64,000 nucleotides of DNA, from assembly GCA_046314355.1 (NCBI GenBank), contig JBKBWQ010000001.1:1-64000 (forward strand). Reading direction: 5' to 3'. The notes under the pieces were generated by a model. It saw nothing but the letters and a program-made list of their open reading frames with translations, was not told the DNA's origin and did not search any database. Made by a program: the position numbers and the translations under genes. Shown piece by piece: positions 12,670-23,977 of the stretch. The stretch's first letter is position 1, and the number at the start of each line of letters is the position of its first letter. The stretch is from Candidatus Altimarinota bacterium. GTDB taxonomy: Bacteria > Patescibacteriota > Gracilibacteria > 1-14-2-50-48-13.

Positions 12670-12727
12670 ATATTTGGGATTTTTTCAGTCTCATTCTCAA
12701 TGAATATAACTATAATCATCATTTCTC

Positions 12728-12794
12728 CACTTAAGCTAAGAATACTAATCCTCAGCTTACCTCAAGTCGAAACTCGAAAAAATAAAAGAACTCC
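12728..12794 (+). repeat. 67-bp direct repeat, left copy (duplicate of the O-methyltransferase 5' end with ATG changed to AAG)
   Basis: 63/67 identical to 23911-23977. Confidence 0.9.
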
Positions 12795-13495: not shown

Positions 13496-13659
13496 AGTAA
13501 AAAAGATAGGACAGATAAGTCTGATGCTATTCTCGTACAATGATTCTTGATCAAAATCTTTAAGAGCACATCGTATATTTAATGCGTGGTGCTCTTTTTT
13601 CATAATGATAGGGATAGAAATATGCTATACTATTCTGATATATCAGTTTTTATACATAT

Positions 13660-14505
13660 ATGCTCAACGAATATTCCTTTCTGGAAAAAATGGGACTTCA
13701 TAAAAATGAAGTAAAGTTATACCTACAGGGACTTGCTATAGGTACTCAAGCTACAAGCGTGTTTGCTAAGAAAACCGGTCTTCCTAGGTCCACAACTCAG
13801 CTCTATCTGCAAAATCTCGTGAAGCTTGGATTTATGTCAAAAACACTTCGTGCAGGAGTGCAGTATTTCACACCGTTCCCTCCCTCTGAGATTGAGAACA
13901 TCATAGATAGCAAAAAGGAAGAGTTAAATGTAATAGGAAATACACTGACAAATATGCTACCTCTTCTCAAGAGTCATCAAAATACGGATTATAATATGTC
14001 CCGAATGACTGTATTTGAAGGAAAGCTTGGAGTACAAAAACTCTTTAAAGATATTGTAGCAACAGGTAAAGAAGTTCTCGTATTTAAATCTCCCTTATAT
14101 CATTTTGATAATCCGGCTCTCCGTAAGATGACGGAATCCTTTATGCTCGAATTGAAGAGAAACGAGATTCCAGTGCGAGCCCTTACTCCAAAAGCCAAAA
14201 AACATAGTGCCGAGTATAGTATAAGCCAAGCTGAATATTATGGTTTTCAAAGACGTTTTATAGAGATGGATATCTATGAATTACCATGTCAGATTTTTGC
14301 CTATGGTGATAAATTGGGAATTATTACAAATGATAGTGAAATACAATGTGTAGTGATCCAAGAAAAATTTCTTACGACGCTCATGTATAGACAGTTTGAG
14401 TACCTATGGTCGGCAGCACTGCCATATCATAAAAAAGTACTAAAGGATGATGATCTTGAAAAGCATGAAGAGCCGTACCGAAAATTCATTCATCCTGAAG
14501 AATAG
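13660..14505 (+). CDS. TrmB-family transcriptional regulator
   Basis: LEKMGL..NE.KLYL..L..G...S..AKKTGLPRST...L..L...G wHTH; FEGK.G.. effector-domain start. Confidence 0.85.
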   Translation: MLNEYSFLEKMGLHKNEVKLYLQGLAIGTQATSVFAKKTGLPRSTTQLYLQNLVKLGFMSKTLRAGVQYFTPFPPSEIENIIDSKKEELNVIGNTLTNMLPLLKSHQNTDYNMSRMTVFEGKLGVQKLFKDIVATGKEVLVFKSPLYHFDNPALRKMTESFMLELKRNEIPVRALTPKAKKHSAEYSISQAEYYGFQRRFIEMDIYELPCQIFAYGDKLGIITNDSEIQCVVIQEKFLTTLMYRQFEYLWSAALPYHKKVLKDDDLEKHEEPYRKFIHPEE

Positions 14506-17190: not shown

Positions 17191-17420
17191 GACTCTCTTA
17201 TATCAATTTACCTAAAAGTTATCACACTATTTATAGTCATAGTATTATATCATGGAGAGAGAAAATTTGATATGTTATGGCTTTGTTTTATGAATATATT
17301 TTCTCTTTAAACTATGATAGTGCCACTAATTAATGCTGTCAGTAGAAATATGTGTTTACAGTAAATAGACTACGTGATTTGACACGTATATCCTGTATAT
17401 TTTTATAATATAATTATTTC

Positions 17421-17609
17421 TGATACTATGCCGTTGTCTTCAATGAAGGGAATAGAAATATTCGCCGTCAGAGAGATTTCAGTTGATCTTTCACAACGAG
17501 GGAAAAATAATCTAAAGCAGAAATGCCCGGACGATTGTGATATATTGAAATGTACCATTGAAGCAATAATTATGTATGTATTTTACCTCTGTGAGGTTAG
17601 GAGAACGAT
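17421..17609 (+). promoter_or_regulatory. Promoter, four-way-junction leader motif (copy A) and SD of cassette 2
   Basis: TG-a-TACTAT extended -10; 32 nt identical to 23036-23067; AGGAG before ATG. Confidence 0.75.
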
Positions 17610-18383
17610 ATGACTCAGAATTTAAATATTACCGCTATTACTGAAGAACTCAAAGTGTATGGTGAGAATCATAAATTAAGAGGACTTGAAGGCCGTATTT
17701 TTAGAGGGCTTGATATTGCAGGAATGCTTGCTGTAGAGACTACAAGGAAACTTGCAGAACAGATAGCAGATAAAATGCAGGTTTCAATGAGTGATCTTGA
17801 AAAAGTTACCAATGAACTTCATGTGGGTACCATTTGGGAATACTCTGATAAATTTCTCAGCAGCAAGGATGCCGCGGTAAATGTATGGATGATCCTTGCC
17901 GAGAGATGTATAGGGCCAAAAATAAAACCTGGCGACCTATCCTCTGAAGAATTTATCGAAGATACAAAGAGAGTTATCACTGAACTCAGTGAAGCAGCAG
18001 AGGATCCGCAGACATTTTTAACTCAAGCTGTTGAAAACCAGGTTATACAGGCTAAAAAAGGCTTTGAGATAGTGGATGGTGTAGCTTTTATAAAGCAGGA
18101 AGGATCCTTCTTACATGCTGCTATTGCTGGTTTGAAATCAGGAATTTCTGAAAGAGTCAGTGATAATGAAACTCTTTTTCACGTGGGAGCTCAGACACTT
18201 GATTTGAATAAGGTTGCGCAGCAGTTTTCTCTTAAAGAAGTCGAAAGAGAAGATCGCGGCAGGGTAGTTACTTTCTATCAGAATAGTGAAGATCAGGATG
18301 TAATCAAAAAATTATATCCGGGTTACGGAATTGTCTTTAACTCTAGGGAAGTCGCTATCGCATTGGCAAAGACTGCATTGTAA
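17610..18383 (+). CDS. Hypothetical protein (257 aa)
   Basis: Long ORF with strong SD; no family recognised. Confidence 0.8.
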   Translation: MTQNLNITAITEELKVYGENHKLRGLEGRIFRGLDIAGMLAVETTRKLAEQIADKMQVSMSDLEKVTNELHVGTIWEYSDKFLSSKDAAVNVWMILAERCIGPKIKPGDLSSEEFIEDTKRVITELSEAAEDPQTFLTQAVENQVIQAKKGFEIVDGVAFIKQEGSFLHAAIAGLKSGISERVSDNETLFHVGAQTLDLNKVAQQFSLKEVEREDRGRVVTFYQNSEDQDVIKKLYPGYGIVFNSREVAIALAKTAL

Positions 18384-18416
18384 ATTATTTTTTCTCGTTG
18401 ATAAGGAGGTGATCAT

Positions 18417-18446
18417 GCCGCTCATAGTATTTGAGCGGCTTTTTTT
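18417..18446 (+). terminator. Intrinsic terminator of cassette 2
   Basis: gccgctca-tagtatt-tgagcggc-ttttttt. Confidence 0.85.
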
Positions 18447-18696: not shown

Positions 18697-20496
18697 ATGT
18701 ATAACAAAAAAACATCGTACGGTTTTTCCGAAAAGGTGTTAGAGAAAAAGATATTTAAAAGAATGTCGCCTCAACTAGAGTCCTTTACGATTCAACATCA
18801 AAAACTAGCTATTAATACTGCTCTGCTCGGAGCGCTTCTTCCATCTGTTCATGTATCCAGAAGTGAGACTGAAAAGAAAAAAATGAATATTGTTATGACA
18901 GCTCTTGCTCCAAGTGTACCGGAAGTCAGACCTCAAAGTCCTGAACAAAATCAGATGTCTGAAGAATTTTCTATATTTCTTTCAGATTTTAATGCAGTAC
19001 TCTCCGCAGATCGAGCAGAACATAAAGGTAAGAATGAATGGTATATACAGATAGAGAATTTGAAAAAATCTGCGTATTACGGAGAGTTTCTAAAAAAGTT
19101 TATAAGAACCGTTGATGAGGTATTGAACTTAGAAAAAAATAAGCACGATACAAAGATCCGAGGTGTACTTTCTTTTATATGTTCTAGGTTTTTGTACACT
19201 GAGAGTACAGGAGATATGCATGATAATACAATCCTCCAGGAACAGATCCTTTTATTTGGAAAGCTGATACAGAATGGATATATATTTGAGCACTCTTTTT
19301 CAGATTTTACACGGACTCTAAATGCAAATATAGAGAGTTTATCGCTCAGGAATATGAATTATATTCTTTATTCTATCGAAAGATCTCCGCAGCGTATACA
19401 ACGTACAAAGACAGGTATCAATGTGATATCAGCTATAGGTCCAAAAATGATAAGTGAGTTTAATAAAATGATGTCTGGAGATCGCCCAAAAGCGTATGAA
19501 TTCACTACAGAGACAAGCCATGATTTGACTCCAGATAATGTTATTCATTTTCTAAAGAATATATTGAAGATTACAACGTATACAAAGAAAGATTTTCACA
19601 CAGCGATGGAATTTCTTGTTCAAAGAAAAGACAGATTAGAGGAAAAAGATCTCAGATCATTATTTTGGATATTAAAAAAAGCAATGGTAAATATCGATCA
19701 GTGGCTTGATCCTTTTATGGGTCAAACTATGGAAGTTATACGGAAACTAAAAGTTTCGGATATGATATCTATGTATTATCAATATGTGATGTCCCATGGA
19801 AACAATCCTCAGATTCTCACTCTATTTCATGAAAAACTGAAGGAAAACAGTACTTCTCTTAAAAGTAATGAGATTAGCATATTATTTTATGTACATGCAT
19901 ATGATAAAAATAAAGATATGGATCTTCAAAAGATACTTCTGCAGAAAATAACTGATAAAAATCTTCACATATCTCCCACTGATATCATTTCCATTGTGAG
20001 AGCATTTGCGATCTTAAATATCTCTGTACCAAATCATATCAACCAGCTCTATCAGACACATATAAGAAGTATGAAAGATACATCTACACATCTTGAGAAG
20101 TCCATTGCAAGTTGGATGCGGACAGAAGTGAGTAAGCTTGGAGTGTTTTCATTTGAAAGCAATAAAATGAATAGCTTTGGTGTAGAAATGGATATTGTCG
20201 TAAGCAATGAATTTAATAAGCTCAATATTGAATGTGATGGAGTGATGTATCACAATACCAATTCAGAGAAACATCTAAAAGATGACCATAGAGATGCTCT
20301 TGTGCGAGAAGCAGGATTTGGAGTAATGAGAGTTACGGACAAGGAATTTTATAGTGATCCTGAACATCTACGACTACGCAGAAGATTACAGCGTTTTCTG
20401 AAATTAAAAGGAATGATAAAACCTACAAAGTATATTCCGTCCGGAAAACATCAACGCTCTATAAAAGAGGAGAATGAGCTCTCTAAAACGGAGTAA
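18697..20496 (+). CDS. Helical-repeat protein with C-terminal RAP/DUF559-like endonuclease domain
   Basis: EMDIVV...LNIECDGVMYH...D..RD..V...GFGVMRV; preceding helical repeat-like segments. Confidence 0.75.
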   Translation: MYNKKTSYGFSEKVLEKKIFKRMSPQLESFTIQHQKLAINTALLGALLPSVHVSRSETEKKKMNIVMTALAPSVPEVRPQSPEQNQMSEEFSIFLSDFNAVLSADRAEHKGKNEWYIQIENLKKSAYYGEFLKKFIRTVDEVLNLEKNKHDTKIRGVLSFICSRFLYTESTGDMHDNTILQEQILLFGKLIQNGYIFEHSFSDFTRTLNANIESLSLRNMNYILYSIERSPQRIQRTKTGINVISAIGPKMISEFNKMMSGDRPKAYEFTTETSHDLTPDNVIHFLKNILKITTYTKKDFHTAMEFLVQRKDRLEEKDLRSLFWILKKAMVNIDQWLDPFMGQTMEVIRKLKVSDMISMYYQYVMSHGNNPQILTLFHEKLKENSTSLKSNEISILFYVHAYDKNKDMDLQKILLQKITDKNLHISPTDIISIVRAFAILNISVPNHINQLYQTHIRSMKDTSTHLEKSIASWMRTEVSKLGVFSFESNKMNSFGVEMDIVVSNEFNKLNIECDGVMYHNTNSEKHLKDDHRDALVREAGFGVMRVTDKEFYSDPEHLRLRRRLQRFLKLKGMIKPTKYIPSGKHQRSIKEENELSKTE

Positions 20497-22238: not shown

Positions 22239-22332
22239 AGAAAAGATTAATATGTTAATATTATAATAACATAAAAATATAGAAGTCGCAATTAGCGTCT
22301 TCTATATGAATTTAAGCAACTTGATTCTCAGA

Positions 22333-22851: not shown

Positions 22852-23001
22852 ATTTTTACCTCCTTTTTGTATACTTAGGCATATTACAATTTTTTTTAAA
22901 AATAGCAATAATATATTAAGTTGTTAACATTTTCTGTCACTAAGTGTAAATTTTGTTTTCTATAAACAAAAATAGCGAATTTACAAATACATGTTATATT
23001 T

Positions 23002-23173
23002 TTGAGTATATTTTATATTTCTGATAGTATACCGCTGTCTTCAATGAAGGGAATAGAAATATTCGCCTCACGGAGAATGCAATGATCTTTTACAGTAAGT
23101 GAGAAATGTAAATTTAAAAGAATTTATTAATTGTTATTTTTGCTTAAAGTAAGCAAAGAAAAGGAGGCTTCAT
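23002..23173 (+). promoter_or_regulatory. Promoter, four-way-junction leader motif (copy B) and SD of cassette 3
   Basis: TTGAGT-N17-TAGTAT with TG extension; shared 32-nt core; AAGGAGG before ATG. Confidence 0.78.
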
Positions 23174-23785
23174 ATGGCAGGAATGGGAGTATCGTATAGC
23201 GTAAGTACCGATAGAGAACTCTCTGTAGATGAAAGAGTTACTACTCAGACTTTGCTCAACAGAAGGTCACAGATTCATCAAAGACTTCAAGTACTCAGAG
23301 AGTTAGATATGAGTATTGAATTTAAGAATCAGTGTCCAAAGTGTGCTTATCAGGTAACTCTGGAAGAAGTGTTAGAAGGTTTTGATCTAAGTAAGACCTA
23401 TGATACTAGAACCGAGTGTCCTAAATGTAGAGAAAAGTTTCAGCCTGAAATTGAATTTAATCATTTGGCTCATAACGGATCTTATACGTTCTATTGTGAA
23501 ACCCAGGCTCTACAAGCCCTAGAGGATGAATATGAAAATATGAATCCTATGGAAATTTTAGAGGATAATCCGGGACTCTTTATCTCTAGCTTAGTACATT
23601 TTGGTGCGATACCGAATGCATTTAAGATGATTGACACTGAGTATAACTGGAAATTTAAATACAATAAATGGAAAGAAAGAGCCATTCCGTACTTAAATAT
23701 CATACCTGTAGGAGTACTTGCCGAAGTTTTAGGTGTAAGTAACTCTAGTCTCTATAAGTTAAAGAAATTGCACGCAAAAGAATAG
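23174..23785 (+). CDS. Hypothetical zinc-ribbon protein with putative C-terminal HTH
   Basis: CPKC...CPKC; VGVLAEVLGVSNSSLYKL HTH-like tail. Confidence 0.75.
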   Translation: MAGMGVSYSVSTDRELSVDERVTTQTLLNRRSQIHQRLQVLRELDMSIEFKNQCPKCAYQVTLEEVLEGFDLSKTYDTRTECPKCREKFQPEIEFNHLAHNGSYTFYCETQALQALEDEYENMNPMEILEDNPGLFISSLVHFGAIPNAFKMIDTEYNWKFKYNKWKERAIPYLNIIPVGVLAEVLGVSNSSLYKLKKLHAKE

Positions 23786-23811
23786 TTTCTCACTCTGAAA
23801 AATAAATCAGT

Positions 23812-23840
23812 ACCACTGCATATGTATGCGGTGGTTTTTT
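23812..23840 (+). terminator. Intrinsic terminator of cassette 3
   Basis: accactgcata-tg-tatgcggtggt-ttttt. Confidence 0.85.
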
Positions 23841-23910
23841 ATTATGTAAAAATACTATCTTTTGATATGATCCAGATCTTTCTCAATTATCTCGACTTAT
23901 TTCCACTCTT

Positions 23911-23977
23911 CACTTAAGCTAAGAACACTAATCATCAGCTTTCCTCATGTCGAAACTCGAAAAAATAAAAGAACTCC
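23911..23977 (+). repeat. 67-bp direct repeat, right (intact) copy
   Basis: Matches 12728-12794; contains the start codon of the O-methyltransferase. Confidence 0.9.

Follow-up and report, generated by a model that had tools for sequence, protein, structure and literature searches.

Intramolecular pairing of the 5′ untranslated region (UTR) with the 3′ UTR has been documented for just a handful of bacterial mRNAs. In the hok mRNA, the long-distance tac/fbi pairing between the 5′ and 3′ ends closes the full-length transcript, and the 5′ element re-pairs locally once the 3′ end is removed (PMC9841398, excerpt). The two UTRs also pair in the icaR mRNA of Staphylococcus aureus, with a UCCCCUG motif masking the Shine-Dalgarno region (PMC3868564, excerpt), and in the hbs mRNA of Bacillus subtilis, where a 14-base-pair (bp) interaction modulates cleavage by RNase Y and couples mRNA stability to translation (PMC5737220, excerpt). 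Here we analyse the first 64,000 nucleotides (nt; hereafter, the window) of contig JBKBWQ010000001.1 from Candidatus Altimarinota bacterium (assembly GCA_046314355.1), in which the leader of a gene for a 257-amino-acid protein is complementary to the region around the stop codon of the same gene (unit A), and in which a second copy of this leader precedes an unrelated gene and has a complementary match of its own past that gene's stop codon (unit B). If real, the two units belong to the known kind of intramolecular 5′ UTR–3′ UTR pairing, with an unusual geometry.

Closure of the mRNA by its untranslated ends is what the units would have in common with hok, and this was the logic proposed in the preliminary description of unit A. 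However, the hok mRNA is short, codes for a small toxin and has an antisense RNA, and its switch works by sequestration of the ribosome-binding site, whereas the mRNAs considered here would be about 0.8–1.0 kb long and encode proteins of 257 and 203 amino acids; moreover, predicted access to the ribosome-binding site is unchanged by the pairing, and the alternative local helix has a probability of 0. A hok-type type I toxin–antitoxin system was considered and rejected: the open reading frames (ORFs) encode 257 and 203 amino acids, and neither an antisense RNA nor an Rfam family was found in the window (0 matches at the gathering score in an Rfam 15 scan of all 64 kb). With icaR, the units would share the 5′ UTR–3′ UTR pairing, and an RNase III gene is present in this genome, but here the 5′ arm lies 69–116 nt upstream of the start codon, off the ribosome-binding site, and the 3′ arm extends from the stop codon. 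The likeness to hbs lies in the RNase Y/J type of decay machinery, which this genome also has, but the lengths and positions of the arms differ.

The window is the beginning of the largest contig (1.62 Mb) of a 1.69-Mb genome in 28 contigs, and its G+C content is 38.3%. According to the label of the one sequencing run covering the stretch, the source sample is a hot springs metagenome. The hot-spring bacterium is uncultured and has RNases of the Bacillus type: genes for RNase III, RNase Y, RNase J and PNPase are encoded in the genome, in which RNase E/G and Hfq were not found.

Complementary arms of units A and B

The main support for pairing between leader and stop region is the second copy, unit B, in which a different sequence at the homologous leader position matches the post-stop region of a different gene. 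Unit A is a compact single-gene unit on the + strand (17421–18446) with a leader of approximately 175–190 nt, and unit B spans about 23022–23840 and carries an ORF unrelated to that of unit A. Each has a common promoter/operator/leader region at its 5′ end and an intrinsic terminator at its 3′ end, both arms lying between the shared promoter-like region and the terminator in A as well as in B; the two are paralogous and probably co-regulated monocistronic units. Their parts are as follows.

Unit A
17353–17511, + strand: promoter/leader segment, paralogous to 22954–23110 of unit B
17421–17429, + strand: extended −10-like TG-n-TAnTAT, by our own reading of the sequence
17436–17466, + strand: 31-nt core, identical in A and B (2 matches, 0 mismatches)
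17494–17541, + strand: 5′ arm, consisting of a core (17494–17511) and an interrupted extension (17512–17541)
17610–18383, + strand: coding sequence, 257 amino acids, without a named family
18351–18400, + strand: 3′ arm, comprising the last 10 codons, the TAA stop (18381–18383) and 17 nt of 3′ UTR
18403–18414, + strand: perfect 12-nt complement of the 16S rRNA 3′ tail, followed directly by ATG (to 18417)
18417–18446, + strand: intrinsic terminator, from a terminator scan

Unit B
23083–23107, + strand: 5′ arm, with a core (23093–23107) aligned to 17494–17511 of unit A
23174–23785, + strand: coding sequence, 203 amino acids, with just weak, sub-threshold zinc-ribbon-like matches
23785–23809, + strand: 3′ arm, starting with the final base of the TAG stop and running on into the 3′ UTR
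23812–23840, + strand: intrinsic terminator, from a terminator scan

The leader of unit A has exactly one relative in the genome, at 22954–23110, with 81% identity over 115 nt in blastn, including the identical 31-nt core. Consistently, nhmmer returned these two copies of the segment and nothing else below E = 2, and a repeat search concurs.

The strings and the collinear pairing first described for unit A were located exactly at 17494–17541 and 18351–18400. In a global alignment, the leader arm is identical to the reverse complement of the 3′ arm in 35 of 51 columns, and RNAduplex predicts 37 pairs, 4 of them G-U, at −34.6 kcal/mol; a generic repeat finder reported merely a 20-nt piece of the arms. 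The RNAduplex z score by which the duplex was to be judged depends on the windows taken. With one arm shuffled it is −5.7, and 0 of 1000 shuffles attained the observed value, a figure that is post hoc because the arms were picked for their match; z is about −2 for the long windows, on which RNAduplex is a poor statistic that chains large loops. We therefore replaced it by the gain in energy upon cofolding and by alignment-based null distributions, applied to the whole leader (17436–17609, 174 nt) and the whole stop region (18330–18446, 117 nt), which makes for a fairer test. The cofold gain of unit A is −21.0 kcal/mol, compared with −8.3 ± 4.1 for 966 window pairs drawn at random with the same geometry, 8 of which do as well. 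When genome-wide window pairs were compared by local DNA alignment, 37, 160 or 1142 of 16156 were as good, depending on which of three scorings was applied; with a pairing-aware alignment, the count was 95 or 446 of 21574. Among 389 ORFs with long non-coding flanks, unit A ranks 10th by cofold gain and 12th by alignment. It is the sole outlier among the 21 long-flank genes of the window, and simple arithmetic (8/966 per gene over 21 genes) leads one to expect such a match in roughly one window in six. The duplex of unit A on its own is thus real, yet only moderately unusual.

For unit B, the test was set by the geometry of unit A, the leader segment aligned to A's core arm being compared with the 20 nt that follow the stop codon. 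The segment pairs with its own post-stop 20 nt at −13.1 kcal/mol, a value equalled or exceeded by 2 of 1281 ORFs, B included; when the lengths of segment and window were varied over 16 settings, between 2 and 18 of 1281 did so. Pairing is cognate: own pairings reach −15.6 kcal/mol in A and −13.1 kcal/mol in B, and exchanging the partners brings the energies to background (A leader with B tail, −5.5; B leader with A tail, −6.4; null means near −4). When every leader window was compared with the post-stop 20-mer, the best was that at 17494 among 157 in A and those at 23090–23093 (tied) among 120 in B, which are aligned, homologous positions in the two leaders. Predicted pairing that is kept while the sequence changes between related members is thus found, for two paralogs only.

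The extent of the duplex is another matter. In unit A, the extension into the coding sequence (17512–17541 against the last 33 nt) has an energy of −20.0 kcal/mol, and 2 of 1281 ORFs are as good in this post hoc comparison. In its coding part, the 3′ arm specifies a C-terminal helix that is conserved in the protein family as a whole; if the match was selected, the leader would be the side that adapted. In unit B, the corresponding extension is at background (461 of 1281), so that the length of approximately 50 nt is peculiar to A and not shared by the two units. The feature common to A and B is a core of 12–17 bp that begins at the stop codon.

The idea that unit A exemplifies a leader/stop-region architecture is supported independently by the second copy with its own cognate match, but not genome-wide. 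Inverted repeats flanking genes are in excess among the 389 genes, with 12 reaching the alignment score of unit A and about 3 expected from mismatched pairs. A genome-wide architecture was rejected as the explanation, for the excess comes mostly from a dispersed AATTAC-type repeat unrelated to unit A. The analysis shows that chance or dispersed repeats readily yield such duplexes in an AT-rich genome. This intergenic repeat family, with copies tens of nucleotides long in both orientations (e.g., around 1083873–1084991, 405317–406531 and 853601–854215 of the largest contig), places strong inverted repeats on either side of housekeeping genes, a DnaJ-like gene among them.

Predicted folds and a proposed role in mRNA fate

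Transcription of unit A presumably starts near 17436, downstream of the TG-n-TAnTAT string, which recurs in similar form at the corresponding position of unit B, as well as upstream of a TrmB-like gene (13636–13644). In the minimum free energy structure of the resulting transcript (17436–18446), leader and tail form 42 pairs, most with a probability of 0.9–1.0, and the fold is unchanged with an earlier start at 17424. The transcript of unit B forms 21 such pairs (23083–23107 with 23785–23809), with probabilities of 0.7–0.97. Over both mRNAs, the pair probabilities are mostly 0.8–1.0. In these models, the long-range helix dominates the predicted fold of the whole unit A mRNA.

A different consequence had been proposed in the preliminary description, namely that the pairing strips the 3′ strand from a P1 helix of the leader. 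This found no support: by itself, the leader of unit A folds no better than its shuffles (z = −0.71), and the only arm-overlapping helix common to both leaders, which includes one compensatory pair, has an ensemble probability of 0.00 in full-length and truncated RNA alike. The 5′ strand of this shared helix may even lie upstream of the transcription start.

The reading that we favour, although we would give it slightly less than an even chance, is that the duplex is a closing helix joining the 5′ UTR to the 3′ UTR of a monocistronic mRNA and affects the fate of that mRNA. That both arms are carried on one RNA and pair in the cell we infer, as we do all functional consequences. The full-length mRNA would close on itself through a helix of 42 pairs in A, where it extends into the final 10 codons, and of 21 pairs in B. 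Since the stop codon is where the 3′ arm begins, ribosomes terminating there would cover the arm and melt the helix, which would therefore be present mainly on idle, untranslated mRNA. Its role would then be in mRNA stability or processing, not in initiation or access to the ribosome-binding site: the helix could be a double-stranded substrate of RNase III or could protect both mRNA ends against RNase Y, RNase J and PNPase. In a variant of this scheme, the 3′ arm together with the terminator would be released as a small RNA and pair with the leader in trans. If true, such pairing would add to the described cases a paralogous pair whose arms changed together, and a geometry that ties the pairing to the termination of translation, not its initiation, the helix starting at the stop codon. 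With computational evidence and two members, this is a testable lead, not yet a result.

A further element is confined to unit A. The 12-nt complement of the genome's own 16S rRNA tail begins 20 nt past the stop codon, and a frame of 15 codons from the ATG that follows it crosses the terminator. The genome has two copies of the 12-mer, of which that in unit A is the only intergenic one; even a 10-nt version is found within 20 nt upstream of the start codon in 0 of 1281 ORFs, and unit B has nothing resembling the 12-nt complement. A more far-reaching scheme, which we regard as very improbable, would make the common parts a reusable expression shell of a mobile island, in which every cargo gene would have a separate cognate helix to close it, melted by each terminating ribosome, and the fate of the mRNA (cleavage by RNase III, or protection from RNase Y/J) would directly read out its translation; in unit A, the 16S complement and the helix could together hold a small ribosomal subunit near the leader, amounting to a bacterial closed-loop mRNA.

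Chance, DNA-level repeats and pairing within the mRNA as possible explanations

A number of observations weigh against a closing helix, and many of them fit the view that the complementarity is a product of chance or a decaying, functionless relic. On this view, interrupted complementarity of 12–20 bp is frequent between A-rich leaders and T-rich 3′ ends at 38% G+C, unit A would be among the few cases to be expected in a genome, and the match in unit B would be a coincidence helped by the search for it; we consider this explanation somewhat unlikely. The 8 of 966 random window pairs that equal unit A, its 10th and 12th ranks among 389 genes and the expectation of such a match in roughly one window in six, given 21 comparable genes, are in line with it. 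A rate of 8/966 predicts about 3 of 389 genes, and 10 of 389 reach unit A, 4 of them through the dispersed repeat; unit A alone is within about twofold of the chance expectation. The match in unit B was noticed by eye before its test was fixed and becomes ordinary once the whole leader is allowed to pair (its value is attained by 43 of 389 matched pairs and by 89 of 1165 mismatched ones), as is its whole-window cofold gain (243 of 966), so that the support from unit B rests on positional homology. Further members are lacking as well. The total is two, with no more found by blastn or nhmmer in the genome; no copy of the leader was present in 40 related genomes or in the viral contigs searched; and a pattern scan of metagenomes gave a single 22-mer match, inside a glycosyltransferase-like coding sequence and not in a leader. 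Complementarity of the 5′ and 3′ regions exceeded the local null in 0 of 6 homologous genes tested elsewhere. These belong to seven loci found with a 6-sequence alignment (L006 has an in-frame stop and was left out; L007 is nearly identical to L008), which span candidate-phyla bacteria, a gammaproteobacterium, an archaeon and others; as their upstream regions are unrelated, this null result neither supports nor strongly opposes pairing in units A and B. What chance does not readily account for is that the match in B lies directly past the stop codon and at the position homologous to A's arm, where 2–18 of 1281 ORFs do as well, that the best leader windows of A and B coincide, and that the arms of A and B differ, each fitting only its own partner, which unselected drift of an ancestral repeat would not keep. 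On balance, we regard the complementarity as probably maintained and not accidental.

Maintenance need not act on RNA. The duplex on the minus strand is equally stable (−35.3 versus −34.6 kcal/mol in A and −16.1 versus −15.7 kcal/mol in B), and in the absence of a strand asymmetry arising from G-U pairs, nothing marks it as RNA rather than DNA, an ambiguity that the chance explanation shares with a third one, an inverted repeat acting at the level of DNA. The arms would then be either sites at which the gene is inverted between a fixed promoter and terminator, as an on/off switch, or what is left of an inverted duplication of the gene's 3′ end that arose when the cargo gene was put into the unit. 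Invertible DNA switches have a segment that lies between fixed regulatory parts and is framed by inverted repeats, on which a site-specific recombinase acts. Inverted repeats likewise flank the gene within a conserved promoter/terminator shell in both units, and recombination between the arms would keep the members of a pair alike, explaining their cognate specificity. By our reading, moreover, the reverse complement of the leader arm of A keeps a stop codon aligned with that of the gene, and the genome has genes for 3 serine recombinases as well as 3 tyrosine recombinases. In contrast to known switches, however, there is no recombinase gene in the window or within 300 kb (the nearest match to the resolvase and tyrosine-recombinase families is at about 322 kb on the contig), no invertase of the size of Hin was found, the serine recombinase frames being 563–605 amino acids long, and the arms are imperfect, with indels even in the core. 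Nor was a second orientation seen: no inverted joint appeared among the contigs of the one run, out of three, in which the region is covered. This is weak evidence, as contigs drop rare variants, and those of this run break at the 31-nt repeat. We judge a DNA-level origin to be unlikely, more so than chance.

For a closing helix within the mRNA, the position of the promoter and the limits of the folding models matter in addition. Consensus promoter scans did not list the TG-n-TAnTAT string of either unit. They gave weak promoter-like sites inside the leader of unit A (17483–17511 and 17545–17573, each with 9 of 12 consensus matches); were transcription to start at a leader-internal site, the 5′ arm would be absent from the mRNA. 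Energy models ignore co-transcriptional folding and ribosomes. No effect on the ribosome-binding site is predicted: in silico, the unpaired probability from the Shine-Dalgarno sequence to the AUG does not change when the 3′ arm is removed (0.28 in full-length versus 0.31 in truncated RNA of A; 0.47 versus 0.44 in B). Occlusion of the ribosome-binding site was rejected on this ground.

Also rejected was a transposon, whether an insertion sequence or a miniature inverted-repeat transposable element, with the arms as its ends, because the likeness of A and B is confined to sequence outside the 5′ arm and is absent inside it. None of the ORFs belongs to a transposase family, and no target duplication was seen in the sequence at unit A.

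The surrounding island, its genes and relatives elsewhere

Direct repeats of 71 nt bound an 11.2-kb genome-specific segment whose ORFs have no families; it holds both units, together with a TrmB-like regulator encoded at 13660–14505. From tsf to a dacA-like gene, the distance is 12.7 kb here and 0.5–1.7 kb in three genomes of the same family, and the segment has the appearance of an integrated island in which no integrase can be recognised. The repeats and the sites of a recurrent motif are the following.

12724–12794, + strand: left 71-nt direct repeat, 66 of 71 positions identical to 23907–23977
23907–23977, + strand: right 71-nt direct repeat, overlapping the start of a methyltransferase gene (ATG at 23947)
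13612, 16955 (− strand), 17449 and 23050: island sites of the motif GGA(A)TAGAAATAT, located upstream of the TrmB-like gene, within the beginning of a gene for 884 amino acids and in both leader cores

The 31-nt core of the leaders carries two short dyads and the motif GGAATAGAAATAT. Of the seven GGA(A)TAGAAATAT sites in the 1.62-Mb contig, four are in the island, and to judge from this distribution the motif is probably the operator of the island's regulator. Its concentration in the island makes the 31-nt core likelier to be a protein operator than an RNA element, and a protein operator is what the core probably is.

The 257-amino-acid protein of unit A matches no Pfam, NCBIfam, PADLOC or PHROG family and has no close relative in the 40 related genomes. 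A word-based search retrieved one metagenome protein, 43% identical to it, and an exhaustive search placed it in an unnamed family of 77 clusters, which also occurs as a domain in proteins of 2270–3585 amino acids. Its structure model is confident (predicted local distance difference test score, pLDDT, of 93.5). The model has no match in the PDB at E ≤ 0.001, the best having E = 2.3e-3 and a template modelling (TM) score of 0.24, and its likeness to DHH/DHHA1 phosphoesterases is weak (TM scores of 0.36–0.43 with Atlas models).

Among the homologous loci, the records L007 (Acidimicrobiia) and L008 (Burkholderiales) contain near-identical copies of the gene with the same flanks, which suggests a shared mobile element or a binning artefact. 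Downstream of the gene, both have a sequence that to our eye resembles a tRNA gene.

Between units A and B lies an ORF for 599 amino acids (18697–20496), the C-terminal part of which has a REase_MTES_1575/DUF559 endonuclease-like match near the Pfam cut-offs. Another ORF of the island, a minus-strand gene for 565 amino acids with no long leader, is preceded on that strand by a recurrence of the upstream part of the unit A promoter region (TATATTTTTAT..., at 22256–22281), followed by TATAAT.

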